The notes beneath the pieces are model-generated. The model saw nothing but the letters and a program-made list of their open reading frames with translations. It was not told the origin of the DNA and did no database searches. From NCBI GenBank assembly GCA_964348665.1, contig CAYGDP010000001.1, forward strand, positions 66,767-130,766: a stretch of DNA of 64,000 nt, read 5' to 3'. The stretch is from an uncultured Verrucomicrobiota bacterium. Lineage in GTDB: Bacteria > Verrucomicrobiota > Verrucomicrobiia > Palsa-1439 > CAYGDP01. The number at the start of each line of letters is the position of its first letter. The first letter of the stretch is position 1. Positions 26,419-45,767 of the stretch are shown here, one piece after another. Position numbers and translations under genes: made by a program.

Positions 26419-26420
26419 AT

Positions 26421-26497: not shown

Positions 26498-26510
26498 AAA
26501 AAATTCGTGT

Positions 26511-27568: not shown

Positions 27569-27674
27569 CCTCCCGCTGCATCGGGGTTGGATTGTATTTG
27601 CGCTTGAACCACTCGGCCCAACCGCTTACCAGCCCCGACAACAGCTTTAAGATTGAACCAATCCAGCCCATCAC
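27420..27674 (-). CDS. small single-TM protein (lysis cassette)
   Basis: N-terminal TM MMGWIGSILKLLSGLVSGWAEWF followed by a charged C-terminus. Overlaps the neighbouring ORFs. Confidence 0.3.
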   Translation of the reverse strand: MMGWIGSILKLLSGLVSGWAEWFKRKYNPTPMQREDDNDAKYAALQKQIRDFERAGDYAAADALRRRLRELHAPHGKRPPNGNG

Positions 27675-28069: not shown

Positions 28070-28422
28070 TTTGAATCTCCTTTTTGGGTTGATCCCTGCA
28101 ATTGGCCAATCGCAAGGAAGAGTTGATTGAAACTCGCCTGATTGGATCGCGTCATCTCGTCCAGTTTCTTATCCATCGCCCGATCGTGGGCGTCTCGGGC
28201 ATTTTGAAACTCGGCGATCCTGGCATTCAGGTCCGACTCGGTTTTCGCCAGCGCCGCCTTCGTGGCAAAATCGTCGGACTTACCGCGGAGCCGATGCACC
28301 ACGTTCAGGATTCCGGCGAAGAGGTTTACCAGCAGCAGCAACGACACCAGCACACCGCCCACCAGTGCCCACGATGGCGGATCCGATGGTAAGTTTGTTT
28401 CCGCAAACAGGGGCGCGTACAT
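28066..28422 (-). CDS. type-II membrane protein with periplasmic coiled coil (i-spanin/Rz-like)
   Basis: N-terminal TM WALVGGVLVSLLLLVNLFAGIL followed by a helical charged domain. Confidence 0.4.
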   Translation of the reverse strand: MYAPLFAETNLPSDPPSWALVGGVLVSLLLLVNLFAGILNVVHRLRGKSDDFATKAALAKTESDLNARIAEFQNARDAHDRAMDKKLDEMTRSNQASFNQLFLAIGQLQGSTQKGDSK

Positions 28423-28460
28423 GCTCCGCAGTGTGCTACGGAAACTGCGGGGGGTCTAAC

Positions 28461-28487
28461 TGCCCTGCGCGCCCTGCGCGCCCTGCG
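28461..28487. repeat. 9-bp tandem repeat (CCCTGCGCG x3)
   Basis: Three perfect tandem copies in the intergenic region. Near-palindromic GC-rich flanks. Confidence 0.5.
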
Positions 28488-28554
28488 CGCGGCAGGCCAG
28501 CGTTACGATTGAAGTTGGAACAAGCTCCGTTGGTCTGGTTGGCAAGGAGAAGAA

Positions 28555-28830
28555 TCAGCCTAATGGTAGACCAAAATCTTCCGTTGGAAGTTGAAGGGCG
28601 GCGCAGATTGAGCGGATAGTATCAGGCAATAGCCTCTCTTCATCTTCAATGCAGACAAGGCAGACAAGCGACTCACCATGGAACTCACGCTGGAGGTATT
28701 GAACCAAATCTTGACCATCTGGACCCTCGATGGAAATTTCCGAGTGTTTCAACTGAACATCGTGATTTTCTTCAACGAAGGCGACAAATTCTCGCCACGT
28801 CGGGAATTGCGCCATCGGGTATGCGCTCAT
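28555..28830 (-). CDS. hypothetical protein
   Basis: 91-aa ORF, ATGA-coupled to 28827..29231. Confidence 0.3.
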   Translation of the reverse strand: MSAYPMAQFPTWREFVAFVEENHDVQLKHSEISIEGPDGQDLVQYLQREFHGESLVCLVCIEDEERLLPDTIRSICAALQLPTEDFGLPLG

Positions 28831-29231
28831 TCACACTGTTGTGCTTCCGCCACATGGACGGGCGCAGCCCCACGCGGCAACTCATTAGTCGGAAACCGTT
28901 TTGGCACAAGCTCACTGGGAGGCGCTAAAGAAAAAGGCTGCTCCAAGGCGCGGCCGCTTTGATAAGTTTCCCAAAATCTCTTTGGGGCTGGCTTGATTCC
29001 GTTGAGCACCGGCGTTTTCGTCTCGAAGGCATATACGAAATACCCCAGCACCGTTCGCATGAACCGATTTTCCAAGCGCTCCAACGTTGGGGCTTGAGCT
29101 ACAATGTCGTATTCCAGCCCTTGCGCCACCCAGACTTCTTTCCCTTTGATTGCCCGTGGGAACACCAAGACTTGAATTTTGAACTCACTGCCTTTCGGCG
29201 AGAGACGATTCATGGGGATCTCCATTTTCAT
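28827..29231 (-). CDS. hypothetical protein
   Basis: 134-aa ORF in the prophage left arm. Confidence 0.3.
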   Translation of the reverse strand: MKMEIPMNRLSPKGSEFKIQVLVFPRAIKGKEVWVAQGLEYDIVAQAPTLERLENRFMRTVLGYFVYAFETKTPVLNGIKPAPKRFWETYQSGRALEQPFSLAPPSELVPKRFPTNELPRGAAPVHVAEAQQCE

Positions 29232-29382
29232 TTCGGGGGCAACGACACTCAGAAATATCAGAAGTCGTGCATCTCCCGATGCTTCAAAACTACCACACCT
29301 ACCCCAAGCCTGTCAACAACCCCGCTCAGAACTCGCCCAGGAAAAACCCGACTGAAATGTTCCGCGCCATCTTCCCTTGCGC

Positions 29383-30231
29383 TCATGGTTTGGCCGACGC
29401 GGTTTTGTGCCGAAGCCAAAGAAAAATAAGAAAACCACCGACAGCGATTATGTTTAGAGCAATGGTTGTCCACCAGAAAACACTTTCCCTCCGCTGCTTG
29501 GCGCGCTTCTCTTCCAGTATGGGATAAAATGCGCTGAGACCGCTGTCATAGAACTCCGCCCGTCCAACTTCCTGAATTTTTTTCGCCCGCTTTATCGCCA
29601 CCCGCACTGCCTCACGGATACGTTCCGACTGTGTATTGTCAGCATAGATTTTTTGTAATGCCTCGACAGCCCGTGGCTGGGCGGAATCGCCTACGGCACG
29701 AATTGCACCTACAAGAACATCCTCCCGCTCTATTTTATGACCGGATGCATTCCGATGTGGGAATGTTGTGCCTTTGACTCTATAGGTTTCTGGCTCAATG
29801 GTCGCCAGCAAATAGGTTAATGCTTTTTCGCTGCCCTTGCCAGCGATATTCACTATTGCGTTTGAGCAGCCTGGGCAAGCCCAGCGGCCCGGTTCGGTCC
29901 CTTGGCGCTCAAGTCGCTCAATGATGGGTTTAACCGCCCGCTCATCGCCGATAATACCCAGAACTTCAATCACATTGTCCCACCATTGTTCCTCTTTTGG
30001 ATCATTTAGCATTTCCAGCAGCGTCGGTACGACACTCGAGTCAAGTTTTGTCGTTTCCCCGTAGTTAACCCCATGGTGCATCGAGGCAATGGGGGGATTG
30101 CGTACGAAGTCTTTTATGTCCCGCCCTTGCCCCAAGCTCGTAGAAAACGAGACAGCCGTTAATCCCAAAATGGACACCAACCGGCAAAGGTTTGAGACTC
30201 GCTTTTCAGTTTTCATGTTGCCATACCTCAC
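29383..30231 (-). CDS. secreted/membrane-anchored HEAT-repeat protein
   Basis: Signal peptide, PBS-lyase/HEAT-like repeats (PTLLEMLNDP...AVKPIIERL...AVEALQKIY) and a C-terminal TM. Lower-GC segment. Confidence 0.45.
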   Translation of the reverse strand: MRYGNMKTEKRVSNLCRLVSILGLTAVSFSTSLGQGRDIKDFVRNPPIASMHHGVNYGETTKLDSSVVPTLLEMLNDPKEEQWWDNVIEVLGIIGDERAVKPIIERLERQGTEPGRWACPGCSNAIVNIAGKGSEKALTYLLATIEPETYRVKGTTFPHRNASGHKIEREDVLVGAIRAVGDSAQPRAVEALQKIYADNTQSERIREAVRVAIKRAKKIQEVGRAEFYDSGLSAFYPILEEKRAKQRRESVFWWTTIALNIIAVGGFLIFLWLRHKTASAKP

Positions 30232-32147
30232 TTCATTCTGAACTTATCACACTCGCTTTGATCCAGTGTGTTCCGTCCCGGCCCGCCTTCGAACATAATT
30301 CTGTGAGTCGGTTTTCCAGAGGCAGAACCGTAATGGGGAAGCCCCTTTTGGTGTCCAAACTCATGCGCCCAATCCGAGGGTGGAGCATTTTGGTCCAGAA
30401 TACTCTGTTTCGCCAAAGTGCAACCATCAATTGCGGGATCGTATTGAAGACCGCACGCCTGTATATCTGTAACAATCATGATATTTGCTTTGCTGGCTAG
30501 GAAGACATCTGCTTGTTCATTTACCCTCTTGTCTGCATTTATGTCTTTGCCATCAACGATTTGCGGGGGAAAATCGCCGACGATGTCATGCCCGTCATTC
30601 AACTCCCCGAATGTTCCGACACTTCCCTTGAGCTTGAGCACGACGCAGCAACGCACATCGTCCTCAATGTCCTTGCGTTTCAGTAGGAGTGTTGCCCTCG
30701 CAAACTTGTCAATGACGTAGTTATTTAATATCTTTTGGTCATTGTTGAACCCGATCTGGAAAGACTTTTTATGAATGGCGACGGTGACTTCATGGGTAAC
30801 CACCTCCACCGCCTCAAACTCGCTGGTCGAAACACCTTGCTCAGTTCCATCGAGCCGCAGGTTGCCATCATCCGCCCAGAAAGTTACCTTATACGTTCCC
30901 TTAACCGGCAACTGTGTTTTGAAGGTCACTCCCTTGCCGCTCTTCACGGGCACGATCGTCACAATGGTCTGGCCGCCCATGGTCTTGGTCTCTTTCCGCT
31001 CCAGTTTCCAAGCCACCCCCGGTGGATTGTCCACTTCCGGGTCGGTGGATACGCGAGCACGGATGGAATCCCCGACGCAGAAATTCTCCGGATCGGAAGA
31101 ATAGATCTCGTCGTCTTCGCCCACAGCTTTCACCTCTGGCTCGACGAGCTTGAAAACCGCGAGATTCACGCCATCTTCACGGTGGGTCGTTGCTTCCTGT
31201 GCGAAGGGAACCGAAATGGCCGGTCTCAAAATCTGCATCGTCAAATTTCCCGTACCCCCGCTGATCCCTTCCACATAGACGGGGTTGGGCAAGTGACCTC
31301 GGCCAACCTCGAACGTTTGGTTTGTAATGTCATTCCCACCAACGGCTGCGTCCCAGACACGGATATTACCCAGCGCACGCAGACGGATCTGCCATGGTCC
31401 CTCGAAATCCACCGTCCTGAGCACCGGCAGAGCGGCCCCATAATCAATATACTGATAACTCGATGGAAATTGAGTCGGCAAAGTCATCTTCGCGGCAGCT
31501 CGCAGACCCACGCCCAAGAGCTTGCCGGGGCCATCCTCCACCAGATCATCAGTGGCCGGATCCAAAACCCCGTCATTGTTGGAGTCGGTATCCAGACTGA
31601 CCACGAATACCTCCAATGATGCGCTGCTCACCGAGTTGCTGGCCGTCACCGTGATGGTTTGGCCCGGCTCGGCGTTTGGAAAGGCAATGACAGCGTTGCC
31701 TATAATCTGGAGGGAACAGTCAGGCTCGACGGGAATAGGCGGTGGAAGATGTGACCAAACAACGGGTTCATGGTAGCTAACAGAAAGAAACTGATTGATC
31801 GCGTTGAAAGCGCCAGATCCGCCGTGCGGCGTAATAAAAACGGGGTTTATCGTGGAGGGAGTTGGGATGAAATATTCCCAGATGCCGATGATTGGCGGCC
31901 CCGGACAGGTCGCCTCAGCCGCGGCTGCCGTTTCGGATGGCGGCGGGTCTACGCCGGGGACGGTGGTCGCACCACCGCAGCAAATCCCGCTGCTGGGACT
32001 GGTACCAATACTGATCAACGTCGCCGCCATCACAACGGCACAAAGTAACACCACCAACACTTTTGCGCTAGTCCTGCCGCCTTGGTTATTGGTTTGCATG
32101 TATTCCCTCCTTGTGGGGCAACTATCTAGCCACATTGCGACCACCAT
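30228..32147 (-). CDS. secreted zinc-metalloprotease-like protein (HEFGH motif)
   Basis: Signal peptide. Long beta-rich N-terminal region. C-terminal HExxH (AHEFGHQKGLPH). ATGA-coupled to the downstream HEAT-repeat gene. Confidence 0.5.
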   Translation of the reverse strand: MVVAMWLDSCPTRREYMQTNNQGGRTSAKVLVVLLCAVVMAATLISIGTSPSSGICCGGATTVPGVDPPPSETAAAAEATCPGPPIIGIWEYFIPTPSTINPVFITPHGGSGAFNAINQFLSVSYHEPVVWSHLPPPIPVEPDCSLQIIGNAVIAFPNAEPGQTITVTASNSVSSASLEVFVVSLDTDSNNDGVLDPATDDLVEDGPGKLLGVGLRAAAKMTLPTQFPSSYQYIDYGAALPVLRTVDFEGPWQIRLRALGNIRVWDAAVGGNDITNQTFEVGRGHLPNPVYVEGISGGTGNLTMQILRPAISVPFAQEATTHREDGVNLAVFKLVEPEVKAVGEDDEIYSSDPENFCVGDSIRARVSTDPEVDNPPGVAWKLERKETKTMGGQTIVTIVPVKSGKGVTFKTQLPVKGTYKVTFWADDGNLRLDGTEQGVSTSEFEAVEVVTHEVTVAIHKKSFQIGFNNDQKILNNYVIDKFARATLLLKRKDIEDDVRCCVVLKLKGSVGTFGELNDGHDIVGDFPPQIVDGKDINADKRVNEQADVFLASKANIMIVTDIQACGLQYDPAIDGCTLAKQSILDQNAPPSDWAHEFGHQKGLPHYGSASGKPTHRIMFEGGPGRNTLDQSECDKFRMK

Positions 32148-32195
32148 GTCACGCCCAAAGAATCAAGCACGCTGCCCGCATAACCCTCCACGCAA

Positions 32196-32810
32196 TCATT
32201 CAGCAGAGAGACATTCCCACTTTTCAATTGTGGCCTTCGAACCAAGCACGGTGACATAGCTAAAAATCCCAACCTTCTTTGCCCTGAAGATTAACACTTT
32301 CCCATCGGTCATCCCTTCTTGATTTGGATGACCGACAAGCAATACTTTTGTCTGCCCACGATCAGATGGTCCCGGTTGAACCAACAAGCCGTCCGAAATT
32401 ACCTGAATGACTTCGCCGTACCCGTTAAAAATCCCGACCTTCTCATCTTCTTTGCGCTGAGCTTCACGCCTGGCGTTTACCAAATTTCGCGCCTCAACCT
32501 CTTTGCGCTTTTGTTCGGCCTCGACTTTCGCTTTTGCCGAAGCTTCACGGACTTGCTTGGGATCGAGCCGTAAATCATTCTTCAAAACCGTGTCAGTCAG
32601 AGAATCCAATGGGATATACGCCAGCCCCTTTTTATGGCTCATGGAAACTGTCAAGCCATCAACCCGAATCCACTTGGCGTTTTCGTAGACCTTGCCATCA
32701 ATAATCATCCGCTTTCCTGCTGGTTCGGCAGACAGACCGGATGCGCAAAACACCGCTGAACCTATCATCGCCAATATTAGCTTGTGCATTTTCCCTCCCC
32801 TATGGTTCAA
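32196..32810 (-). CDS. secreted hypothetical protein with a charged helical segment
   Basis: Signal peptide MHKLILAMIGSAVFCASGLSA. KAKVEAEQKRKEVEARNLVNARREAQRKEDEK coiled coil. Confidence 0.4.
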   Translation of the reverse strand: MNHRGGKMHKLILAMIGSAVFCASGLSAEPAGKRMIIDGKVYENAKWIRVDGLTVSMSHKKGLAYIPLDSLTDTVLKNDLRLDPKQVREASAKAKVEAEQKRKEVEARNLVNARREAQRKEDEKVGIFNGYGEVIQVISDGLLVQPGPSDRGQTKVLLVGHPNQEGMTDGKVLIFRAKKVGIFSYVTVLGSKATIEKWECLSAE

Positions 32811-33489
32811 ACTTCGTGATCACCGGGCAAGCCTTTAGGATGTCCGCCTTGTCCAGCGTGATCGGTTTATATTTTTCGTTCCGGCTGGTCAAAACGATCT
32901 TGCCAGCGCGCTCGTGGTAGATCTTCAACATCGTCTCTCGCGCTTTCGTCTTCACCACCGCCGCCTGCCCAGAGTGCGGGCGCAAATCCGTCGCGATGAT
33001 CACCCGATCCCCCTCGTTGTAACTCGGCTCCATGCTGTCGCCCTTCACGATGATCCCCACCAAATCATCGCGGCTGCTCTCCACTTTGCGATACTCATCA
33101 ATATGCCAACCCGGATCCGAAAAAATCTCGCCCTGCCCGGCTTGCGCCCACGTTACAACCGGAACCAATTGAACCTTCTTCGATATTAAATAATGCCCGC
33201 GCGATTCGCGGATCACGGATGACGGAAGCGAATCGGTATCGTGTGGGGCTGCTACCTCGCGGGGATTTTTCCCACTCAATAACCATTCTTCCCGGACGCC
33301 GAGCGCCAGCGAAATTCCACCCAAGATGCTGGGATGATAGCTTTTCCCCTTTTCGACGCGCGCGATCGTCTGTTGTTTTTGACTAACCAGCTCTGCGAGC
33401 TTTGCCTGCGAAAGACCCGCGGCCATACGAGCCTCGGCGGCGCGCCCGCCGATTTGCTCTCGAAGCGCCTGTGAAATGCCCCTACTCAT
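32800..33489 (-). CDS. prophage repressor: XRE-type HTH fused to an S24 LexA-like autopeptidase domain
   Basis: N-terminal HTH (LSQAKLAELVSQKQQTIARVEKG). C-terminal GDSMEP (S24 Ser motif) with the downstream Lys (ETMLKIY). Divergent from the Cro/Ner-like gene. Confidence 0.8.
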   Translation of the reverse strand: MSRGISQALREQIGGRAAEARMAAGLSQAKLAELVSQKQQTIARVEKGKSYHPSILGGISLALGVREEWLLSGKNPREVAAPHDTDSLPSSVIRESRGHYLISKKVQLVPVVTWAQAGQGEIFSDPGWHIDEYRKVESSRDDLVGIIVKGDSMEPSYNEGDRVIIATDLRPHSGQAAVVKTKARETMLKIYHERAGKIVLTSRNEKYKPITLDKADILKACPVITKFEP

Positions 33490-33503: not shown

Positions 33504-33535
33504 TGTGTTGACTCAACACAAAAACGTGTTAGATT
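33504..33535. promoter_or_regulatory. operator/promoter region between the repressor and Cro/Ner-like genes
   Basis: Perfect palindrome TGTGTTGAcTCAACACA (33504-33520), overlapping palindrome AACACaaaaacGTGTT (33515-33530). Sigma-70-like -35 TTGACT and -10 TAGATT with a 16-nt spacer. Confidence 0.5.
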
Positions 33536-34586: not shown

Positions 34587-35395
34587 ACGCCAACGGAAAA
34601 ATTCAACACATCAACCCAGAACTTCTTGTTCCGCATCCTTTGACTGAACTCGTACCGATGACGGCGGAGGATGAATCCCAAAATGTCGCGTTAATCGAGA
34701 GCATTCGGGAGCGCGGAATTGACCAGGCAATCTTGGCGGACGCCAGCTATAAAATCCTCGATGGCCGCCATCGGCATCGCGCGGCGAAGACTCTAAAACT
34801 CGCCACTGTGCCGGTTGTAATCCGAGAGGAAACCGAGGCCGCGAGCATCATCTTGGATTCCCTTCTTGCCCGCCGTCACTTTACCAAAAGCGCGCTGGCC
34901 TACATCGCGTTACCGCTCTACGACAAAGCCGCCGCTGAGGGGCGACAGCGTAGGACGGGAGCTAAGCCGAGTGGCTCGGCTTTCGCTATGAAAGCGAGTG
35001 ATTTTTCAACCCGTTTAGGCATCTCAAAAGACACCTTTGAACAAGCTCGCGATGTTCGAGAATTGTTCGCCAAACGCCCTGATTTGAAGGCTGAATTTGA
35101 GCCCAAAATTTTTAGCGGGGATATGAGCCTCTGGAATGTTCGTAGCGCAGCGGGCGGTCGCGACAAAACCAAAGGCGTCGCCCGCAAAGACAGCCAGCGC
35201 ACCTTTGAAGATCTGGTCGGCGATTGGATCGAGCTAGGCGTTCATCGCCTCAAACATTGGGAGAAAATCGGCAGTAAAGCCGATCGGCTCAAACTAACCC
35301 ACAAAGCTGCCGATGCGCTTGTTGGCGCTTTCCCCGACGAATGGTTGCCGGCATTGGAACGCGCGATCCGTGCGCGAAAAGGAGAGACGCGATGA
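34583..35395 (+). CDS. ParB-like nuclease domain protein
   Basis: ILDGRHRHRAA (ParB/sulfiredoxin DGxHR motif). Confidence 0.6.
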   Translation: MNANGKIQHINPELLVPHPLTELVPMTAEDESQNVALIESIRERGIDQAILADASYKILDGRHRHRAAKTLKLATVPVVIREETEAASIILDSLLARRHFTKSALAYIALPLYDKAAAEGRQRRTGAKPSGSAFAMKASDFSTRLGISKDTFEQARDVRELFAKRPDLKAEFEPKIFSGDMSLWNVRSAAGGRDKTKGVARKDSQRTFEDLVGDWIELGVHRLKHWEKIGSKADRLKLTHKAADALVGAFPDEWLPALERAIRARKGETR

Positions 35396-37194
35396 CTGAT
35401 ACACAAACCCGCGAACTGACGCGACGCAATCAAATCGTGTGCGCCGCCATCCCTCTGTTGAATCAGGGCGGCAGCTATGCAGCCGTCGCGCGCAGGCTCG
35501 GCGAGAATAAAGTCTCGCTATATCGGTGGGTATCGGTATTTCGAAAAGGCGGCGATGCGGCGCTTATCCCTCAATCCACCAACAGCGGGCGCAAAGCGGA
35601 CTTCAATCTGACCGACGACGAAGCCGCCGCTCTGCGATATTGGCGGCTGGTGCGCGGCAGCCTGGCCTCGGCGATTCCCGATTTCACGCAGTCGCGCGAG
35701 TGCCGCCCCGAGACGCGCGCGAAAATCCTCGCCATCCAGGACCGTGCCGCGCGCGATCGCCGTATTCCCAACTGGCCGATGTCGCTCCGGCGCGCGGGTC
35801 ATGTAACCGCCGATGATGAAGCCTTGTTCCGCGGCTGCAAACATTTTCAGGAGGTCGAGTTTTGCCAGCGGCGCGGCAACTTCATCGTGGATGAAGCGGG
35901 CAACCAGATCGAACTCGCCCCAAACACGATTTGGGAATCGGACGATATGTCCGTCAACGAACCGTTTTCCTACGTGGATGCCGACACCGGCGAGACCAAA
36001 CTCGGTCGCCAAACTCTTTGGACGCAGGATGTCTATAGCGCCAAATGGATCGGCACGACTCCATTGGGCCGCGCCAAGGACGCCTATCGCGTCGAGGATA
36101 TCGCTGACCACATTTTCAACTGCGTGCTTCAATTCGGGCTGCCGACCATCTGGCGTATCGAGCGCGGCGTGTGGGACAACAACTGGGTGGACGGCTTTGA
36201 GCTGCCCGATGGCTCCCGTTGGGGCGGCCTCGATGCGCTGATGCGCATCCAAAAGGTTTTCAAATCACGCGGCAAAGGCGGCATCGAATCTAACTTCAAT
36301 CTCCTCCAAACCATCAACGCCCACAAATCCACCAGCATTGGTCGCAGCCGGAGCGAGTTCGAGGCCGCCACAAAACTTTTCCTGTCCGCCCAAAAAGGAA
36401 ACACGGAGGCCGCCGCGAAATTCTGGAACATTGCCGAGTGTGCCGATGGCCTGCTCGAAACCGCTCGCGCGGCGGATGCCCGCGCCAAACAACGCCGTGC
36501 CTTCGGACGCGATGTCGTAGTTCCCAACGATCTTTACGCCGCGGCAACCAAACGGGAAATTCCAGCCGATCAATTGTGGCGATTCTGCCCCATCAAGCGC
36601 TCGGCCACTGTGCGCGGAGGTCACGTCGAGGTCAGCGTCAATCATTATCCCCTGCCGTTCCGATTTCGCGTCAACGGCGTTGAGGATCTGCACCTAGAAC
36701 AAGGCTATGCGGTGTTGATTGCGTTCCATCCCGGGCGCGCCCACGAGGGCTGCCACGTTTTCAGCGCCGAGACCGGCAGCCGGAACCGATTCGGTCTCAA
36801 ATTTAGCGAGAAGATTTTGCTCGCCCCGATGGCCGAGGATGCCCCGCAGATTTCCATGAGCCGTGATGAGCAGCAATTTCTGGCCCGGCGCAAAGCCAAC
36901 GCGGCGGCGCGCACCGAGTTCCGCGCCATCGTAGCGGCAGGTACGCGCGGCCGACGCGAATCCATCGCGCGCGATTCCTACGGCAACACGCAGCGGATCG
37001 AGACCCAACAGATTTCGGGGGCGAGCGGGCCGCAAACTGACCGTTTGCAAAATGCGCCCACAAGTGCCGCCCCCGTTATTTCCGCGCCACGCCGCCGCGC
37101 GACGCCAGAATACGACGAGGCGGAGACGCGCAATCGCATCAAGGAAAACGAAGACGCCCTGCGCGAGCAAGGTGTCGTGATCGAAGAATCGTAA
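35392..37194 (+). CDS. Mu-type DDE transposase (MuA-like)
   Basis: 600 aa. N-terminal HTH region, central DDE core (WESDDMS...), Mu-transposase-like C-terminal domain. Follows the repressor and Cro/Ner-like gene, as in Mu. Confidence 0.7.
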   Translation: MTDTQTRELTRRNQIVCAAIPLLNQGGSYAAVARRLGENKVSLYRWVSVFRKGGDAALIPQSTNSGRKADFNLTDDEAAALRYWRLVRGSLASAIPDFTQSRECRPETRAKILAIQDRAARDRRIPNWPMSLRRAGHVTADDEALFRGCKHFQEVEFCQRRGNFIVDEAGNQIELAPNTIWESDDMSVNEPFSYVDADTGETKLGRQTLWTQDVYSAKWIGTTPLGRAKDAYRVEDIADHIFNCVLQFGLPTIWRIERGVWDNNWVDGFELPDGSRWGGLDALMRIQKVFKSRGKGGIESNFNLLQTINAHKSTSIGRSRSEFEAATKLFLSAQKGNTEAAAKFWNIAECADGLLETARAADARAKQRRAFGRDVVVPNDLYAAATKREIPADQLWRFCPIKRSATVRGGHVEVSVNHYPLPFRFRVNGVEDLHLEQGYAVLIAFHPGRAHEGCHVFSAETGSRNRFGLKFSEKILLAPMAEDAPQISMSRDEQQFLARRKANAAARTEFRAIVAAGTRGRRESIARDSYGNTQRIETQQISGASGPQTDRLQNAPTSAAPVISAPRRRATPEYDEAETRNRIKENEDALREQGVVIEES

Positions 37195-37213: not shown

Positions 37214-38419
37214 ATGAGCAAGACAACTGAAGCAGTGAAGATGGGCTGGTGGATGCCGACCAAAATGGCTGGCGTTCGCGCTGTACATCATTACGCGACG
37301 GCAGATCGCGGAGCGGCCTGCGGGAAATGGATTTACCACGGCGATGGCGGTGATCTAGTGGCAGACCAACCCGATAAAGCCTGCCCTAATTGCCTAACAG
37401 CATTGAGTCGCGATAAAAAACCGAACCTCCCAATGCCGCCCACCGAAGGCGAGTATGGCGATCTCGATACCGAGATCCGGGAGTTGACACAATTCATCTA
37501 CGCTTATCAAACGACCGAAGACCTCAGCGACAACGCGTTGGTGAAAAAGTTCCCCGGACTCGGCAGCACGAAGACGTGGACAAAGTTCCTGTCTGGAAAC
37601 ATCGTCGAACTCAACGTCCCTAAATGGATCGTCGAGTATCGCCAAGTTCGCGAGCAGATTGTCGCGCTCCAAACGCGCAGCAAAGACAACGAACCGATTT
37701 ACGACGATCTCAGCGGCTTCATGCGGTTACGCGGCGCCTTCACCGAGGCGCTCCGCGAAGACGGTAACAATCGCCTGATCATCGTTCAAGGACCATCGGG
37801 CAGCGGCAAGACGACGGCGGTGAAGTTGTTGGCGCAGAAATTTGGGCGGCGGATTATTTTCTGCGAGGCCGACGAGACTTGGAAAGAATCGCTGCGCGCC
37901 ATGATGGGCGGCATCCTCAACGCCGTCGGCATCGAGCAGACGCCGCTACAACTCCGCGACTGTGAACGCAAAGTCATCGAGCGATTGTCGGCGCCGCGCG
38001 TTTGTCTGGTGATTGACGAAGCCCATCACCTCGGCCCGCGCACGCTGAACCTCGTCAAGACGATCATCAACCAAACGCCAGGCGAAATCATTTTGCTGGC
38101 GATGGACACGCTTCAGGCGCGTCTCGAATCGAGCGCGTATTTCGAGGCAATGCAGTTGGTCCACAACCGTCTGCTCGAACGCATCCGCCTCGACCGCCTC
38201 GAAGCCGACGACGTGGAGAAAATTCTCAAGCGCCGCCTCACGTGGGAAAATGGAGATTTACACAAAGCCGCCACCGCGTTGCGCGATCAAGCCGTGCGGC
38301 GCGGCCATCTGGCCTTCGTCAAACTCGTCGTGCGCCGCGCCGCACGCCTGGCCGATGGCGACCCGATGACACTCGAAGTTTTTGTGAAGGCCATGAGCCA
38401 GACTATTGATAAACGCTAA
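37214..38419 (+). CDS. MuB-like AAA+ transposition ATPase with N-terminal zinc ribbon
   Basis: Walker A GPSGSGKTT, Walker B LVIDEAHHL. N-terminal C-x5-C...CPNC zinc ribbon. Directly downstream of the transposase. Confidence 0.7.
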   Translation: MSKTTEAVKMGWWMPTKMAGVRAVHHYATADRGAACGKWIYHGDGGDLVADQPDKACPNCLTALSRDKKPNLPMPPTEGEYGDLDTEIRELTQFIYAYQTTEDLSDNALVKKFPGLGSTKTWTKFLSGNIVELNVPKWIVEYRQVREQIVALQTRSKDNEPIYDDLSGFMRLRGAFTEALREDGNNRLIIVQGPSGSGKTTAVKLLAQKFGRRIIFCEADETWKESLRAMMGGILNAVGIEQTPLQLRDCERKVIERLSAPRVCLVIDEAHHLGPRTLNLVKTIINQTPGEIILLAMDTLQARLESSAYFEAMQLVHNRLLERIRLDRLEADDVEKILKRRLTWENGDLHKAATALRDQAVRRGHLAFVKLVVRRAARLADGDPMTLEVFVKAMSQTIDKR

Positions 38420-38645: not shown

Positions 38646-39103
38646 ACCCGATCACCGAAACAAATCTCCCGTCCCCCACGCGTGGGCGGGATGAACACGA
38701 CGCAGCGGCGGCGGGGATCGTGCGCCCCGCGCCGCTCGCGTCGCGTCGCCACGCCCGGTGGCGGCGACGTATGATCACGGCGGGCCGCTGCGCCGATTGC
38801 GGCGACGTGCGGAATCTCTATACGATTCATTGCGACGATTGTCAGGATAAGCGGAACCGCTGGCGCCAACGCAACCGCGGTGGCGATGCATGGCAGCCCG
38901 GTGGCCCCGGGCGCCCACCCAAATGGGCTTGCCTCGCCAAAGTCACGCGACAGCGGGACGAAGGCCGGGCGACACTCAAACGACTTTTGCGAGCTGGGCC
39001 GGAGCCAGCCTTTACCTCCTTGAAGGCCACGGTGGACGCCAGTTCATCGGCAACGACTCAGCTCGCTTCTAATCAACCAAAACAAGAAAGGAAAGCAGCA
39101 TGA
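38642..39103 (+). CDS. hypothetical early protein with CxxC...CxxC zinc finger
   Basis: CADCG...CDDCQ. Arg-rich. Confidence 0.3.
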   Translation: MNPITETNLPSPTRGRDEHDAAAAGIVRPAPLASRRHARWRRRMITAGRCADCGDVRNLYTIHCDDCQDKRNRWRQRNRGGDAWQPGGPGRPPKWACLAKVTRQRDEGRATLKRLLRAGPEPAFTSLKATVDASSSATTQLASNQPKQERKAA

Positions 39104-39651
39104 ACAAGACACGCATCACAATCAAACCCGTCGAGCAACGCGAGGACATGGAGGCATGTCTAGGCGAGCTGGCGAGACATACCATCCAGCGCGACGGACT
39201 CAACGCGGAGATGGAGTTGCGAATCAACGAGATCCGCAAAAAGTACGAAGGCAAAATCGAATCTTTCAGCGAGAAGATCGAAGTCTGCACCGAAGTCCTC
39301 AAAGATTGGGCGGAACGCCATCCCGATCAATTCGGGAAAAAGAAATCCATCGAGACAGTCCACGGCTCTGTGGGATTCCGATTCGGCCAACCGCAAGTCA
39401 AGACCAAGCTCAAGCTGACCTGGGCGATCGTGCTCGAAAAAATCAAGGCGCTATCCCTCAACGCAAAGTACGTCCGCGTCAAAGAAGAAGCCAACAAGGA
39501 AGCCATCCTCGCCGACCGCGACAAGAAACTCAATGGACCGCACGGCGAATACACGATCGAAGATCTCGGCGTCCGCATTGTTCAGGACGAAGCTTTCTTC
39601 ATCGAAATCAAACGGGAGCCAGTCGGCGAACCCGTCGCCAAAGCCGCATAA
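39100..39651 (+). CDS. gam: host-nuclease inhibitor Gam (Mu Gam family)
   Basis: C-terminal KEEANKEAILADRDKKLNGPHGEYTIEDLGVRIVQDEAFFIEIKRE aligns with Mu Gam KQEINKEAILLEPKAVAGV...IEDFSIIPFEQE. Confidence 0.6.
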   Translation: MNKTRITIKPVEQREDMEACLGELARHTIQRDGLNAEMELRINEIRKKYEGKIESFSEKIEVCTEVLKDWAERHPDQFGKKKSIETVHGSVGFRFGQPQVKTKLKLTWAIVLEKIKALSLNAKYVRVKEEANKEAILADRDKKLNGPHGEYTIEDLGVRIVQDEAFFIEIKREPVGEPVAKAA

Positions 39652-40123: not shown

Positions 40124-40602
40124 TGAGCGCCCCGCTATCCAACTCGCAAAAGGCGACAATCGCCATGCTCGCGCGTCGCGCGTGGGATAGCATCGGCCAG
40201 AAAGAAGCCAGCGCGTTGGGGTTGTCTGGCTTCGACGAGTGGCGGCGATTTCAAACGGAAGTTGCCGTGGGAAAAGACAGCCTTCGGATCGCCACGCAGG
40301 AAGATTTCTTACCGATCCAGGCGCATTTCTTCTCGCTCCTGGGCGAATCAAAACGCGCGCAGGCGGCAATGGACCGGCACCAAACCAATCCACGCCGCAT
40401 CGCTTTTGCCAATTTGGAAAAAAACTGCCGGGAGCGCGGCCTAACACTTAATTACCCCGGCGCGATCTGTCGCCGTCAATATAACTGTGCGCTCCACGAA
40501 GCCACCGAAAAACAAATCTGGGCGCTGGTCTATACCGTTCGCAACCGAAGGAAAGCTTTACCCGCCGCGCCGTTTGGCGGGCAACACAGGGAGGCTGCGT
40601 GA
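40123..40602 (+). CDS. GemA-like protein (Mu gp16/DUF1018-like)
   Basis: SQKATIAMLARRAWDSIG...LGLSGFDEWRRFQTEVAVGKDSL resembles the DUF1018 N-terminal pattern. Positioned after gam, as in Mu. Confidence 0.35.
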   Translation: MSAPLSNSQKATIAMLARRAWDSIGQKEASALGLSGFDEWRRFQTEVAVGKDSLRIATQEDFLPIQAHFFSLLGESKRAQAAMDRHQTNPRRIAFANLEKNCRERGLTLNYPGAICRRQYNCALHEATEKQIWALVYTVRNRRKALPAAPFGGQHREAA

Positions 40603-40919
40603 GCGAGCAATCCAAATGCCCCGCGTGTAACGGCAGCGGCACGATTCGCATGTCTGCTACCGAGACGATCACCTGTGATGATTGTTGTGGGAGCGGCAAA
40701 GCCGACCTCCAACCCGCCACCATGCCTAAGCTTGAAATCACACCCGGCGCGAATTGTATCCGCTGTCGTGGCAGCGGCTTTGAGCCGAAAGGTTTCAGGC
40801 GGAAGCCTTGTCGCTGCGTAATGAAAGCGATCCAGAAATATCGAGCGGCCAACAGTTACACAGGGCCGTTGAAATACAGTATTGAATTTCCAAGTGCATG
40901 TCCCGTGGGGCAACCATGA
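40599..40919 (+). CDS. DnaJ-type CxxCxGxG zinc-finger protein
   Basis: CPACNGSG, CDDCCGSG, CIRCRGSG repeats. Confidence 0.4.
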   Translation: MSEQSKCPACNGSGTIRMSATETITCDDCCGSGKADLQPATMPKLEITPGANCIRCRGSGFEPKGFRRKPCRCVMKAIQKYRAANSYTGPLKYSIEFPSACPVGQP

Positions 40920-41791: not shown

Positions 41792-42007
41792 TTGAGACCA
41801 TATATGAATGACGTGGATACATTTTTGATGCCGTTTGGCAAACACAAGGGAAAGACGCTCGGATGGATCGCCGAGAATGACGTGCTCTACCTCGATTGGC
41901 TCGTCGGTTCGCCGGATCTGCGCGGCCCGCTGCGCGATGCCGTCGAGCAGATGTGCGAGACGTGGGCGCGGGAAATTGACCTCGAACTAGAAAGGCACGG
42001 ACGATGA
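41792..42007 (+). CDS. DUF3820-like small protein
   Basis: LMPFGKHKGKTLGWIAENDVLYLDWL matches the DUF3820 signature (MPFGKYKG...YL.WL). Confidence 0.4.
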   Translation: MRPYMNDVDTFLMPFGKHKGKTLGWIAENDVLYLDWLVGSPDLRGPLRDAVEQMCETWAREIDLELERHGR

Positions 42008-42165
42008 ACATAAAAGACTGTGTGATCTTGAGCTTGGTGGCCGGAATGATCGCCGCGGCGCTCTTGGCGATCTGGGTGGATTGGCGCATCGGCGCGACAA
42101 TCGTAGTTGCCATCGTAAGCGCGCTAACGGTGATGGCCTATTTGGATTGGCCGCGCGAAGGATAA
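42004..42165 (+). CDS. small membrane protein (53 aa)
   Basis: Two TMs, ATGA-coupled. Confidence 0.25.
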   Translation: MNIKDCVILSLVAGMIAAALLAIWVDWRIGATIVVAIVSALTVMAYLDWPREG

Positions 42166-42168
42166 CAA

Positions 42169-42807
42169 ATGGCAGAGACCAAACAACGCATTCCGTTGGC
42201 CGAAGCGCGCAGGCTCGCCGCGAAAATCCTCAATGTGCTCTCGCCATTCTGCGAACGCATCGAGATCGCGGGTAGCATCCGGCGCGCGCGGCCAACGGTT
42301 GGCGATGTTGATCTCGTGGCTCTGCCCAAGGATGTCGCCGGACTAAAAGCCCGGTGCGCGCAGAATTGTACGGTCATCACAGACGGCGATCAAAATTTCG
42401 GCGTGCAACTTGGCGGGAGCGGCACACAGATAGATATATGGCTGGCGCAATACATTGAGGCCGGGCTATTCACGCCGCGCACCCACAATTTCGGCAGCTT
42501 GTTGGTCTGTCGCACCGGCAGCAAGGACCACAACATACATTTGTGTGAGTACGCCAAAAAACTCGGCCTTAAATGGTCGCCATACACCGGCGTCTTTCGC
42601 GGCAGCGATCTTATCGCCAGCGAGACCGAAATCGACATCTTTAAGGCGCTCGGTCTGCCATACATCAAACCCGAATCGCGCGAACTCGAATGGGGCTTGC
42701 CGGTATGGTCGCGTCAGGCGCAGGAATCAAAGGCGACAATGGAAAACATCGAGCGAATCGGGCGGCAAGCCAAAGCCAACATCACAAAGGAACAGAGTGA
42801 AAATTAA
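42169..42807 (+). CDS. PolX (DNA polymerase beta)-like nucleotidyltransferase
   Basis: IAGSIRRARPTVGDVDLVAL matches the Pol-beta palm motif GSxRRGxxxxGDhDhLh. Confidence 0.5.
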   Translation: MAETKQRIPLAEARRLAAKILNVLSPFCERIEIAGSIRRARPTVGDVDLVALPKDVAGLKARCAQNCTVITDGDQNFGVQLGGSGTQIDIWLAQYIEAGLFTPRTHNFGSLLVCRTGSKDHNIHLCEYAKKLGLKWSPYTGVFRGSDLIASETEIDIFKALGLPYIKPESRELEWGLPVWSRQAQESKATMENIERIGRQAKANITKEQSEN

Positions 42808-43017: not shown

Positions 43018-43251
43018 ATGAGCGATATTCAACGCGAAAAAATGCTGAACCAATCCAAACGCCTTGCGGTTGCCTATGGCATCCCGAACGAATTTCTAAT
43101 GAGTGTTTTCGACGCATCGGGATTTACGGTCTCGATGATCAAGTACGACGGTAAACAGGTGGTCATCATGGGTGACGAAAAATCCGCCCGCGAAGTCATC
43201 AAGGGAATTGGGATGATGGCAGACGCACTCGAATCCAAGAAAGCGGAATGA
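43018..43251 (+). CDS. hypothetical protein
   Basis: 77 aa. Confidence 0.3.
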   Translation: MSDIQREKMLNQSKRLAVAYGIPNEFLMSVFDASGFTVSMIKYDGKQVVIMGDEKSAREVIKGIGMMADALESKKAE

Positions 43252-43955
43252 ACATCGAGGAGAAAATCAAAAAATTGTTACGGATCGAGCGCGGCGGATC
43301 TCCCGCCGAAATCGCAACCGCTTTGAGGATGGCCCAGAAGCTTGCCGATCAACACGATATAGACCTCGCGCAACTCAATCCCAACGAGGAACAAACCCAC
43401 AAAACAATCGCCCACATCAAAATAGCGATCGGCTTACGCAAAGGCTATAGCCATAGTTGGGGCGCGACAATTCTCAAGAATTATTTCGACGTGGACGTTT
43501 TCTTCAGCCAACGACGAAGTTCATTCGCTTTCGATGGAATGATTTTGCCGGGCGGAATCGAATATGTCCTCGTCGTGGTTGGTTTGCCGCACCGCATCGA
43601 GCTTGCCAGGCACGTATTCATCTTCGTGATCCGCGAGTTCGGAGTTGCCTGGCGTACTCGTCGCGGGCGCTGTCGCAACAACAGGAATTTCATTTTCGGA
43701 ATGGCTTCGGGCATTATGGCGCAACTCGACGAGGACCGCGCCGCCAAACAAACTATGTCGCAACACAACGCGTTGGTCTGCTCGCGGCAAAATTACATCG
43801 CCAAAAACTTCGGCGAGCTGAAACAGAAAAAACATCGCGCCGTAAAAGTCACCGCCGCCACCATGCGCGGCTACGCCATCGGTCGCGAAACGCGGATCCA
43901 TCTGCCAATGGAATCCAACGACGAACCCAAACTCCAACTCACGGAGGGACGATGA
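43248..43955 (+). CDS. DUF2786-like protein
   Basis: N-terminal IEEKIKKLLRIERGGSPAEIATALRMAQKLADQHDIDLAQL is typical of DUF2786. Confidence 0.4.
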   Translation: MNIEEKIKKLLRIERGGSPAEIATALRMAQKLADQHDIDLAQLNPNEEQTHKTIAHIKIAIGLRKGYSHSWGATILKNYFDVDVFFSQRRSSFAFDGMILPGGIEYVLVVVGLPHRIELARHVFIFVIREFGVAWRTRRGRCRNNRNFIFGMASGIMAQLDEDRAAKQTMSQHNALVCSRQNYIAKNFGELKQKKHRAVKVTAATMRGYAIGRETRIHLPMESNDEPKLQLTEGR

Positions 43956-44203
43956 GCGAATCAAAAACAGGCTGGTGGAACCCGACGCCTTTTCGGGACA
44001 ACCCACGATTCCATTATGTAACTGATGATGGCCGAACGCTTTGCGGCAAATGGGCATACATTGGCATGGGCGATGTCGAGGAGGGACGCGACGGTCACTC
44101 CGAAAATTGTGTCGCCTGCAAAAAGAAAAAGCTGGCGCTGAATGCCCGCGCCAAAAACCCCCGCCACGTGGAACTACCGGTCAAGGAATTAACCAATGGC
44201 TGA
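43952..44203 (+). CDS. zinc-ribbon protein paralogous to the MuB N-terminal domain
   Basis: TGWWNPTPF...DGRTLCGKWAYIG...ENCVACKKK versus MuB MGWWMPTKM...RGAACGKWIYHGD...KACPNC. Confidence 0.4.
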   Translation: MSESKTGWWNPTPFRDNPRFHYVTDDGRTLCGKWAYIGMGDVEEGRDGHSENCVACKKKKLALNARAKNPRHVELPVKELTNG

Positions 44204-45767
44204 ATTTCTTTTCGGACCTGTGCCGCACGAAGAGGCGATCAAGTTCATCGCCGATAAACCCGTTGTCTCGCGCGAGGTTTTCAACAAGCTTCTACCCGAG
44301 CTGAAGGCGCGGGCGTTTACCATCAGCGGCATCGAGGGCGCGAACGCGATGCAGAGTATCCGCGACAAGATCGCCGAGCTGCCCGCAGGCGGCGATTGGG
44401 ACACGATCAAGCAACAAATCGCCGATGACCTCGCCAATGAAGGTCTATTCGATAATCCTGATGCCGACGAGGAATCGCGTGCGGCCAGCGCCGAGGCCGC
44501 CGAGCGCCGTGCCGAAATTCTTTTGCGCACCCACGGATTCCAAGCCTACAGCGCCGCGCGATTCAACGTGATGAATCGGCAGAAAGATGCCCTGCCGTTT
44601 TGGAAATATCAAACCGTTGGTGATGAACATGTGCGCGATGAACACGCCGCGCTCGATGGCGTCATTCTTCCCGCCGATTCGCCCTTTTGGAACGATCATT
44701 ATCCGCCATGGGATTGGGGCTGCCGATGTTTGGTCGTGCCGCTCGATGCCGAGGAAGTCGCCGAGATTCGCGAGGCGGAAAAGGATTTGGATGGCGACAA
44801 GCGATCGCTACTCGAAGGCGAGTTACAGCGCCAGCTAGAAGTCAACGGGCGAATCGCGCGCGGTCCTACGCAAGTCGTTGACGTGCGCAGTCCGCGCGAC
44901 AAAGGCGTGGAAGCGCCATTTGTTTGGCAGCCAGGCAATTTGCGCGTGCCGATCCAAAAGCTTCGCGGCCAATGGGATGCCCCTGTTTTTGATAGCTTCG
45001 AGCAGTGGGCTAAACGTCAGATCGTAAATGAACGCGATCAAACCGTTTGGAATTGGCTGAATCAAAAGCAACGCCCGCCGCTGGCAACGCGCGATTCATT
45101 GCGCAGCGAGGATGTGAAGCGTAAACATCGCGGGGCAATCTCCCAGGGAGTATCGCGCTCGGACAAGATCACATTGGAAGATGGTACTGTCGCTGTCCGA
45201 AAACCAATCGAAGGTTTGGGGTACGAAGATTTTTTGGAGGGGCCTCTATTTCATAAAGATTCCAGCAGAAACGGGGCTGCCTTTCAAATCGCCGCCGATG
45301 ATATTTCGCGCGCGCTGGGCTGGGAGGTTGTGGCGCCAGCATCCATCAATAAGGATGGATCTGAATTACGAACGGCTTTTACCGAAGGTGTGGCACTCCA
45401 TTCGTCACCGCGATCTGAAATCGATCGTCAACAATGGGAGCGGGTGGCGTTCATTGATTATGTAATCGGACAGCAGGATGGCCATAGCGGAAATTACTTG
45501 GTCACTGCGGATGGCAAGTTGGTTGGGTTCGATCTGAATATCGCCGGTGGTGAGCGATTCCGCAGTACGGCGTTGGAAGAGATCAGTCGTGAGACAGACG
45601 AGGGTGGCGTCGCTAAATTTAGCAGGAAAACCGTGAATGAGGTCGAGCGCAAGCTTGACAAGATCGCATTTCGAGAGGAAGTTTCTACGGAGCTTCAGGA
45701 CAAACTTTTGGGGCGGATCAAGGAGTTTTTAGATTCCGATGGTGAGATAAACTGGGAGTTCAAATGA
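44196..45767 (+). CDS. Mu F-like minor head protein (gp30) fused to a C-terminal PI3K/PI4K-like kinase motif
   Basis: Phage_Mu_F motif KYQTVGDEHVRDEHAALDGVI. The C-terminal VIGQQDGHSGNYLVTADGKLVGFDLN matches the lipid-kinase catalytic loop GDRHxxN and the DFG-like activation segment. Confidence 0.65.
   Translation: MAEFLFGPVPHEEAIKFIADKPVVSREVFNKLLPELKARAFTISGIEGANAMQSIRDKIAELPAGGDWDTIKQQIADDLANEGLFDNPDADEESRAASAEAAERRAEILLRTHGFQAYSAARFNVMNRQKDALPFWKYQTVGDEHVRDEHAALDGVILPADSPFWNDHYPPWDWGCRCLVVPLDAEEVAEIREAEKDLDGDKRSLLEGELQRQLEVNGRIARGPTQVVDVRSPRDKGVEAPFVWQPGNLRVPIQKLRGQWDAPVFDSFEQWAKRQIVNERDQTVWNWLNQKQRPPLATRDSLRSEDVKRKHRGAISQGVSRSDKITLEDGTVAVRKPIEGLGYEDFLEGPLFHKDSSRNGAAFQIAADDISRALGWEVVAPASINKDGSELRTAFTEGVALHSSPRSEIDRQQWERVAFIDYVIGQQDGHSGNYLVTADGKLVGFDLNIAGGERFRSTALEEISRETDEGGVAKFSRKTVNEVERKLDKIAFREEVSTELQDKLLGRIKEFLDSDGEINWEFK

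Follow-up and report, generated by a model that had tools for sequence, protein, structure and literature searches.

Within a 64,000-nucleotide stretch of a contig from an uncultured Verrucomicrobiota bacterium (assembly GCA_964348665.1, contig CAYGDP010000001.1, positions 66,767 to 130,766 of the forward strand; hereafter the window), we studied the open reading frame (ORF) at positions 42169-42807. Our results identify it as a real gene encoding a family X DNA polymerase (PolX) reduced to the palm and the C-terminal subdomain. The protein of 212 amino acids (aa) has the PolX fold and an intact, conserved active site. It is encoded among the early genes of a Mu-like prophage, and close relatives of it recur in uncultured phages of the same type. 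From the sequence, we think it probable that this is a catalytically competent stand-alone PolX, whose most likely task would be to fill short single-strand gaps in phage DNA or in the DNA joining phage and host.

The gene is one of a tightly packed same-strand array, as the preceding 53-aa ORF stops 3 nucleotides before its ATG and the following ORF begins at 42797, overlapping its stop codon. Metagenome and NCBI contigs, the longest of 321 kb, carry an identical protein in the same gene context. The Pfam model of the C-terminal subdomain of these polymerases (DNA_pol_B_thumb, PF14791) matches aa 112-172 with an E-value of 5.1e-16 (58.7 bits, cut-off 25), and the palm model matches aa 7-57 slightly under its cut-off (22.7 bits for a cut-off of 25, E 1.2e-4). 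When PDB sequences were searched with phmmer, the best match was the core of T. thermophilus PolX (3au2; E 5.6e-17, aa 6-173), followed by Pol lambda, African swine fever virus (ASFV) Pol X and Pol mu. The NCBIfam PolX equivalog was matched with an E-value of 1e-15, at 57 bits for a cut-off of 426 and over core positions 148-316 of 571 only. The initial annotation of this sequence had described a 212-aa protein without lyase and fingers domains, which fits these results: Pfam finds the PolX thumb and gives no match in the protein for the 8-kDa lyase (PF14716), PF10391, HHH or PHP domains, and only about 25 residues precede the GS motif. A search of PHROGs assigned the protein to no family and a search with PADLOC gave no match, so it belongs to no named phage family and is not known as a component of defence systems.

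The Pol beta-type nucleotidyltransferase fold and the GS...DxD motif are common to MNT, antibiotic nucleotidyltransferases and CD-NTases, and the motif by itself is not discriminating. The protein might then have been no polymerase at all, but a minimal MNT antitoxin nucleotidyltransferase, an antibiotic nucleotidyltransferase or a CD-NTase signalling enzyme. An AlphaFold2 model built from an alignment of 62 sequences (alignment A1) has a mean predicted local distance difference test (pLDDT) of 93.6 and a predicted template-modelling score (pTM) of 0.81. Compared with the PDB using Foldseek, it has family X polymerases as all of its top 50 matches, the best being ternary complexes of T. thermophilus PolX (E 8e-15). 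In a library of viral structures it matches the PolX of Vibrio phages and giant viruses. The values of the structure comparison drop sharply after PolX, to 8.9 for LnuA, 8.1 for Cid1, 7.7 for MenT, at most 6.9 for CD-NTases and 6.2 for kanamycin nucleotidyltransferase. The initial annotation had proposed precisely this comparison between PolX and MNT or CD-NTase folds, and the best structural matches are PolX, not MNT. Together with the match to the PolX-specific C-terminal subdomain (E 5e-16) and the lack of any PADLOC match, this effectively refutes a non-polymerase identity. The PolX fold also disfavours the nucleotide-signalling enzyme that had been suggested, and the suggested anti-defence role, given the same PADLOC result, is without support.

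The Pol beta palm signature with both catalytic aspartates, on which the gene was originally recognized, is exactly as described: the peptide GSIRRARPTVGDVDLV occupies aa 35-50, and a third catalytic aspartate, D89, can be added to it. This peptide aligns with GSARRYKDTVGDLDFL in T. thermophilus PolX and with GSYRRGKATCGDVDVLI in Pol lambda, and the residues G35-S36-I-R38-R39, D46-V-D48 and D89 correspond column for column to both enzymes. In alignment A1, A34, G35, S36, R38, R39, D46, D89, T116, G117, E154 and P168 are invariant across the 62 homologs, and G35, S36, R38, R39 and D46 are likewise invariant among 156 homologs. Residues were compared between 21 members of the Mu-associated clade described below, 79 other stand-alone homologs and 56 full-length PolX cores. 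D48 is an aspartate in 21/21 clade members and D or E in the other homologs, and D89 is an aspartate in all 21. That the catalytic residues are conserved speaks for an active enzyme.

The part of the protein that selects the nucleotide has changed more. The C-terminal subdomain holds C114-R115-T116-G117-S118...N122...C126, followed by the tail E154...L161...P168-E-x-R171. T-G-S is kept in stand-alone homologs, and N122, the equivalent of Pol beta N279, is mostly kept in them and invariant within the Mu clade. At the positions of Pol beta Y271, F272 and R283 the window protein has C114, R115 and C126. The Mu clade has C (or A/S/T), R (21/21) and C/A/V at these positions, and the stand-alone class has C/I/V, an almost invariant Arg and C/A/V/L, while full-length PolX retain Y, F and R in at least 50 of 56 cases. 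The replacement is a consistent signature of the whole stand-alone class, and with the selection helix altered neither fidelity nor sugar selectivity can be taken for granted. The insertion of about 10 residues that follows the third aspartate (aa 94-103) is specific to the Mu clade: present in 21/21 members, it is absent from 78/79 other stand-alone homologs and from 56/56 full-length PolX, and it is a gap in the alignments with T. thermophilus PolX and Pol lambda. It brings the spacing between D89 and T116 to 26 residues, against 16. Finally, the predicted helix appended to the core (aa 179-211) forms a block with pLDDT around 96 after a dip across aa 171-190. It is missing in most relatives, most homologs stopping near aa 173.

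The placement of the gene in the early region of a Mu-like prophage, already made in the initial annotation, is borne out by its neighbours, with transposase, MuB and Gam identified by PHROG in a same-strand array 5' of PolX (Table 1). The order on the plus strand is a ParB-like gene, the transposase, the MuB-like ATPase, Gam, about ten small ORFs, PolX, two small ORFs, the DUF2786/DUF7168 gene and Mu F, and past the latter come a Mu-like protease, the major head protein gpT, gp36 and tail genes. The transposase had no match among PDB sequences and was identified via PHROG 310. Gam is encoded 2.5 kb 5' of PolX, and no terminator-like site was found on the plus strand between about 35.0 and 44.9 kb. 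The head genes of the prophage are of Mu type (Phage_Mu_F, Mu-like gpT, Mu gp36 and Mu-like protease).

Proteins of this kind are numerous. A search of 5.8 billion proteins gave 129 matches, nearly all of 155-245 aa, and a profile search of 1.84 billion cluster representatives (50% identity) recovered 16,317 at E<=1e-3 and 1,125 at E<=1e-30, the best 150 of which all have 139-251 aa. These counts and small sizes indicate that stand-alone palm-thumb PolX form a large family. We retrieved loci with PolX homologs from GTDB genomes (80) and from IMG/VR (80), called their ORFs, and searched them with iterated hidden Markov models (HMMs) made from the MuA, MuB, Gam and Mu F proteins of the window. 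Among the stand-alone homologs whose upstream sequence reaches 5 kb or more, MuA, MuB or Gam was found upstream on the same strand in 16/17 of those with at least 45% identity to the query, 4/7 at 40-45%, 8/15 at 35-40%, 3/33 at 30-35% and 0/4 below 30%; the one remaining homolog of the first group has Mu F. A neighbour-joining tree built from 156 core sequences places the window protein in a clade of 21 terminals, in which Mu hallmark genes accompany 21/21 and no full-length PolX is found. The hosts of clade members include Burkholderiales, Desulfobacteraceae, Sulfuricella, Acidobacteriota and Verrucomicrobiota, and the most similar prophage (L010) lies in a metagenome-assembled genome (MAG) of Verrucomicrobiae. 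In most clade members Gam is 0.7-6.4 kb upstream of PolX, and the order AAA_22 ... Phage_Mu_Gam ... PolX is also seen in the precomputed Pfam annotation of independent contigs. Other arrangements exist. In L167, an NCBI MAG contig with a PolX 47% identical to that of the window, PolX lies between a ParB-like gene and the series MuA, MuB, Gam, its stop codon overlapping the start of the transposase gene (MuA HMM E 6e-122); in L094, PolX precedes the ParB-like, MuA and MuB genes.

Such enzymes had been called uncommon in Mu-like phages, and this is true of deposited and cultured phages. A tblastn search of 50,697 deposited phage genomes gave 12 weak matches only, with 26-30% identity, in Listeria phage contigs, a Vibrio jumbo phage, YerA41/GN1, Carin-5 and two coliphages of about 115 kb. 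Gam was matched in 35 deposited records (Mu, SfMu, RcapMu-type and Porphyromonas phages), and none of these coincides with the PolX-bearing records among the matches listed. The claim is not supported for metagenomes, where the gene is not rare and the closest clade is exclusively found in Mu-like early operons. A search of IMG/VR with the single MuB protein of the window found nothing.

More distant stand-alone homologs are found in non-Mu phages, often beside DNA methyltransferases and genes with an ASCH domain, and others lie in regions resembling defence islands. Clustering the neighbours of PolX across 100 loci gave ASCH-domain proteins (12 loci), DNA methyltransferases and Mu early genes, and no ligase, AP (apurinic/apyrimidinic) endonuclease, lyase or HhH protein. 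The ASCH-domain protein (PF04266, 4.7e-6 for a representative) is the commonest conserved neighbour of stand-alone PolX and is usually immediately downstream (L009, L042, L056, L089, L098, L118, L119, L123, L127, L132, L144 and L150; also L006, L115 and L164). DNA methyltransferases recur within 4 kb of stand-alone PolX genes. Neither gene adjoins the PolX of the window. At L169 (17011-20377), which is not a Mu-like phage, about 7 kb separate a distant homolog (P0088, 42% identical) from a Pycsar-like pair, consisting of a guanylate cyclase domain and PycTM, and from other genes of defence-island type. The contigs themselves end unevenly around the gene. In the Mu clade, 13/22 end 0.75-3.5 kb downstream of PolX (L002-L006, L008, L085, L087-L089, L093, L095 and L096) and 1/22 within 4 kb upstream, the corresponding numbers for other homologs being 13/85 and 24/85. 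Either PolX lies near the genome terminus in many of these relatives, or assemblies break at a variable region 3' of it.

How might the enzyme work? It would be transcribed together with the early transposition and replication genes of the prophage. D46, D48 and D89 would bind two divalent metals, G35-S36-R38-R39 would hold the triphosphate of the incoming nucleotide, and the T116-G117-S118...N122 helix would close over the nascent base pair. The enzyme could then extend a 3'-OH across a short gap, presumably in a distributive manner and with neither proofreading nor deoxyribose phosphate (dRP)-lyase activity, and a host ligase would seal the remaining nick. We infer that it is active as a polymerase, that it prefers gaps, and on which substrate it acts in vivo. 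Candidate substrates are the 5-nucleotide gaps flanking each new Mu-type insertion, or intermediates of base-excision or nick repair. End or gap repair after transposition, which the initial annotation had also put forward, is a plausible role. In Mu, it was "widely assumed" that a host gap-filling polymerase fills the 5-bp gaps left at each end of the insertion (PMC3325207).

Several points weigh against gap filling as the function of this protein. Mu gap repair in E. coli genetically needs PriA-DnaT and RecABC, and no dedicated gap-filling polymerase (PMC3325207). Cultured Mu-like phages do without a PolX gene, which makes it accessory, and the stand-alone PolX of non-Mu phages argue for a role in general repair over one specific to transposition. 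The association with Mu-like phages could also be partly due to vertical inheritance within one phage lineage. The protein lacks 8-kDa and HhH DNA-binding domains, and no partner supplying them is encoded nearby. The initial annotation had advised checking the neighbouring small ORFs for partner domains, and among the ORFs scanned with Pfam and PHROG between 40.1 and 45.8 kb we found no lyase, HhH, ligase or nuclease partner. The scan gave only an ORF with an ExoX-like_C motif, another with a DnaJ-type zinc finger, DUF2786/DUF7168 and Mu F. The ORF with the ExoX-like motif is not a conserved partner of PolX, a related small protein being found near PolX at only 3 other loci. The replacements at Y271, F272 and R283 mean that sugar selectivity, fidelity or even the substrate could differ from those of canonical enzymes. 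Finally, the PolX2 group, with which this family may overlap (see below), has "none ... studied experimentally" (PMC12926913).

Gap filling could take a more specialized form, in which the enzyme is dedicated to transposition. It would be recruited to the strand-transfer complex, directly or via MuA/MuB, to fill the two 5-nucleotide target gaps, which would present a 3'-OH and, after flap removal, a 5'-phosphate, and integration would thereby be freed from host recombination and restart repair. The restriction of the clade to Mu-like early operons points in this direction. So does the position of the gene, which varies while always remaining in the operon of A and B: most loci have it after Gam, L167 has it immediately 5' of the transposase with a stop/start overlap, and L094 has it ahead of the ParB-like, MuA and MuB genes. 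The clade-specific 10-aa insertion with its D-L-F motif could be an element for interaction or DNA contact. Pol beta and Pol lambda prefer short gaps, and the substrate fits this preference of PolX enzymes. The repair of Mu gaps is, moreover, an acknowledged open question (PMC3325207). Against such dedication stand the cultured Mu-like phages without PolX, the 11 homologs in Mu context that fall outside the clade and the many relatives in non-Mu phages; enzymes of the ASFV Pol X type also favour 1-nucleotide gaps. We regard a dedicated gap-filler as possible, though rather doubtful. The fullest version of the idea is that one Mu-like lineage encodes its own gap-filler in the transposition operon, integrates independently of host PriA and RecABC, and uses the D-L-F insertion to dock on the transpososome or on the gapped joint. 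The stop/start overlap of L167 would then reflect translational coupling of PolX to the transposase gene. This scenario seems to us unlikely.

The other two explanations we consider move away from gap filling. Deposited phages carry the annotation "Mu Gam-like, Ku ortholog" for the Gam protein (PF07352), whose gene shares the strand of PolX and lies 2.5 kb before it in the window, and 0.7-6.4 kb before it in most clade members. The two could thus form an end-processing module akin to non-homologous end joining (NHEJ), where Gam binds the ends of broken or of linear phage DNA, PolX fills them in or adds nucleotides, much as Pol lambda, Pol mu and Pol4 do in concert with Ku, and a host ligase joins them. 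Gam is general in Mu-like phages, however, which makes the co-occurrence unspecific. In the PolX protein there is neither a BRCT domain nor any other domain for interaction with Ku, the examined neighbourhoods contain no ligase gene, and the non-Mu relatives carry PolX without Gam. We give this explanation very little credence. It is also improbable, in our view, that the protein is a non-canonical transferase adding ribonucleotides, or nucleotides without a template in the manner of TdT and Pol mu, to DNA or RNA 3' ends, such tails serving to protect or mark phage DNA ends or to interfere with a host system. Pol mu and TdT have Gly-Trp at the Y271/F272 position, which is associated with relaxed sugar and template dependence, and the equivalents of Y271 (in the steric-gate region), F272 and R283 are replaced across the stand-alone class. 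The family profile also recovers TdT and Pol mu, with E-values from 1e-9 to 4e-14. Yet all clade members keep N122, the counterpart of Pol beta N279, which touches the incoming base. A Loop1-like insertion between DxD and the third aspartate is lacking, the clade insertion coming after the latter, and the closest relatives by sequence are the templated cores of bacterial PolX. Filling of short gaps by a templated polymerase remains the function that we favour.

Comparison with known enzymes helps to place the protein. ASFV Pol X (pO174L, 174 aa; PDB 1jaj, 5hr9, 5hrb), described as a minimal viral repair polymerase (PMC11646218), also consists of the palm and C-terminal subdomain without 8-kDa lyase or HhH, and these domains are thus not required for membership of family X or for activity. 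Our family profile matches it end to end (E 7e-14). It differs from the window protein in belonging to a virus of eukaryotes, in its low identity of about 20% (single-sequence E 0.01-0.03, against 5.6e-17 to T. thermophilus PolX) and in lacking the 10-aa insertion and the C-terminal helix. Presumably, it also keeps Phe at the F272 position, where the stand-alone class has its almost invariant Arg. Full-length prokaryotic PolX cores are nearer relatives than ASFV Pol X, and because of this closeness to bacterial cores the domain reduction in the window protein was probably independent. The core of T. thermophilus PolX (TTHA1150; PDB 3au2, 3auo) is the best match in both sequence and Foldseek searches, with 35-38% identity over aa 6-173, a profile E-value of 1.1e-28, and the GS-RR, DxD, third Asp and TGSK-H motifs in common. 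That enzyme, however, has 575 aa, with 8-kDa, HhH and C-terminal PHP exonuclease/AP-endonuclease domains that the window protein lacks, and at the positions of Y271 and R283 it carries Y and R (Y-L-T-G-S...R), where the window protein has two cysteines. The lack of a C-terminal PHP domain likewise separates our protein from the bacterial PolX1 (PolX-PHP). As for Pol lambda and Pol mu acting with Ku, they share the filling of short gaps, and a Ku-like Gam is encoded in the PolX operon, but the window protein has no BRCT, 8-kDa or HhH domain and Gam is common to Mu-like phages in general.

Phage-encoded PolX have received little attention: a review of phage DNA polymerases names no family X enzyme (PMC8775771), and in the literature we found biochemistry for a single phage PolX, gp158 of Yersinia phage YerA41, whose relatives occur in SP15-like phages and Cobetia phage Carin-5. 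In vitro, gp158 incises AP sites and fills gaps together with a phage ligase (bioRxiv 10.1101/2025.03.26.645540). It shares 27% identity with the window protein over palm and thumb. It is longer, with 298 aa including an N-terminal region of about 150 aa, and keeps Y-F-T-G-P...R. Its phage is virulent, with a genome of 145 kb and hypermodified DNA, rather than a transposable prophage, and the enzyme acts with a UDG-fused PolA. We dropped it as a close functional model, since it is a longer subtype with canonical motifs. A survey of the family (NAR 2026, PMC12926913) defined a PolX2 group without 8-kDa and PHP domains, with a conserved polymerase active site and an extra helical C-terminal domain. 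Its members come from bacteria, archaea, eukaryotes and viruses, and an origin from bacterial PolX1 was proposed for them. Judged by this description only, the window protein resembles PolX2 in lacking the 8-kDa and PHP domains and conserving the active site. It has a single extra predicted helix, though, and its relatives mostly end after the core. The two families may overlap. The survey does not mention Mu-like phages (PMC12926913), and we found no described link between PolX and Mu-like phages in the literature. The class of stand-alone PolX was known; for its clade-level link to transposable phages we found no description.

The repair of the short gaps made by DDE transposition is unsettled even for Mu (PMC3325207), and a PolX encoded in an operon with transposase, MuB and Gam, as it is in many uncultured Mu-like phages, is a concrete and clonable candidate. 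The interest of the finding rises if the role in transposition gaps is true; if this is an ordinary repair polymerase, the result is a useful annotation and little beyond. Independently of that, stand-alone palm-thumb PolX are a large class (at least 1,125 clusters at 50% identity with E<=1e-30) of small proteins (about 160-210 aa), and their changes at steric-gate and fidelity positions are of interest for polymerase enzymology and enzymatic DNA synthesis.

Table 1. Features of the PolX gene and of the surrounding prophage, in window coordinates.
Feature	Position	Strand	Basis
PolX core gene: palm, C-terminal nucleotide-selection subdomain and one extra C-terminal helix; 212 aa, ATG start	42169..42807	+	
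AAGGA, resembling a ribosome-binding site, 6 nt 5' of the PolX ATG, within the 3' end of the 53-aa ORF	42158..42162	+	read from sequence
Hydrophobic 53-aa ORF directly 5' of PolX; stop codon 42163-42165	42004..42165	+	no family match
GSIRRARPTVGDVDLV, aa 35-50: triphosphate-binding G35-S36-x-R38-R39 and catalytic D46-x-D48	42271..42318	+	alignment
D89, third catalytic aspartate, within QIDIW	42433..42435	+	aligned to GLQVDLR D (T. thermophilus PolX) and RLDII (Pol lambda)
Mu-clade-specific insertion of ~10 residues, aa 94-103, with D/G-L-F motif (G99-L100-F101 here)	42448..42477	+	alignment gap
PolX C-terminal subdomain (Pfam "thumb", nascent-base-pair-binding), aa 112-172	42502..42684	+	PF14791
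Predicted extension of the core by one long, charged alpha-helix, aa 179-211	42703..42801	+	AF2 secondary structure
Prophage repressor, HTH and S24 peptidase, divergent from the early operon	32800..33489	-	Pfam Peptidase_S24 1.2e-17, HTH_3 1.1e-7
Promoter-like site just beyond the repressor	33508-33535	+	promoter scan
Mu A-type transposase, directly 5' of the MuB-like ATPase	35341..37194	+	PHROG 310 "transposase" 8.5e-11; N-terminal HTH domains
MuB-like AAA+ DNA transposition protein	37214..38419	+	PHROG 296 "DNA transposition protein" 2e-25; AAA_22/AAA_16
Mu Gam-like (Ku-like) DNA-end-binding protein	39100..39651	+	PF07352; PHROG 491 1.4e-32
71-aa ORF with ExoX-like C-terminal motif (FGKHKG...YLDWL), 5' of PolX	41792..42007	+	Pfam PF20600 6.5e-8
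DUF2786/DUF7168 protein (PHROG 421), 3' of PolX	43248..43955	+	
Mu F-like head morphogenesis protein, first late gene past the PolX block	44196..45767	+	PF04233 1.9e-17, aa 64-180 only

The layout of the prophage is unusual, with a minus-strand part (21715-33489) facing a plus-strand part (33564-59152). Packaging and lysis genes lie left of the repressor on the minus strand and comprise a holin-like gene (27671-28069), the small terminase subunit TerS (26511-27161), the large subunit TerL and a Mu-type portal (21715-23241; Portal_Mu PF06074, 1.7e-61). On the plus strand, the genes for Mu F, protease, capsid and tail come after the early operon, and some 21 kb separate the portal from Mu F. In the relatives L010, L089 and L092, Mu F is likewise found about 2 kb past the start of PolX, which indicates that the layout is heritable and no assembly error. 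A portal search in IMG/VR for packaging genes in the relatives' contigs gave one irrelevant match only. The large terminase is apparently split by a DNA methylase gene (23234-26418, minus strand): an ATPase-like part (25468-26418; PHROG 2 TerL 1.3e-9, weak Terminase_6N) and a nuclease part (23234-23944; Terminase_6C 3.4e-5) enclose a C5 cytosine methyltransferase gene (23941-25110; PF00145 1.4e-29), the stop of which overlaps the start of the nuclease ORF. Between the lysis and packaging block and the repressor (29383-32147, minus strand) are a 638-aa ORF without family match and a gene for a HEAT-repeat protein (PF13646 6e-9), which may be accessory or moron genes.

Candidate prophage ends are marked by a 13-bp inverted match, GTTTGAAAAGGGT, at 21703-21715 and 59261-59273, for which the chance expectation in the compared regions is about 0.02. 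AATGTTTGAAA is present twice at the left end (21634 and 21700), and GAAAAGGGT is a second copy at the right end (59239-59247). A search around these candidate ends gave no convincing 5-bp target-site duplication or exact termini. The flanks are host-like, with DCC1-like genes on the left and GH81 and sulfatase genes on the right. For a flanking aldehyde dehydrogenase, the closest named homologs (54-59% identity) come from Phycisphaeraceae, Pirellulales and Tepidisphaeraceae, which places the host, approximately, in the PVC group, its probable affiliation.

Two other ORFs of the prophage deserve mention. In the early region, a 106-aa ORF (40599-40919, plus strand) has repeated CxxCxGxG zinc-finger motifs and matches the DnaJ central domain (9.6e-5) and Anti-TRAP (4e-3), both below their thresholds. 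The Mu F homolog carries a C-terminal extension of about 320 aa (aa 201-523; 44796-45767, plus strand), for which no Pfam, PDB-sequence or PADLOC match was found and in which a stretch D-G-H-S-G-N ... G-F-D-L-N looks, by eye, like a kinase catalytic loop. MuF proteins with fused toxin domains are known, and this extension could be a candidate cargo domain.

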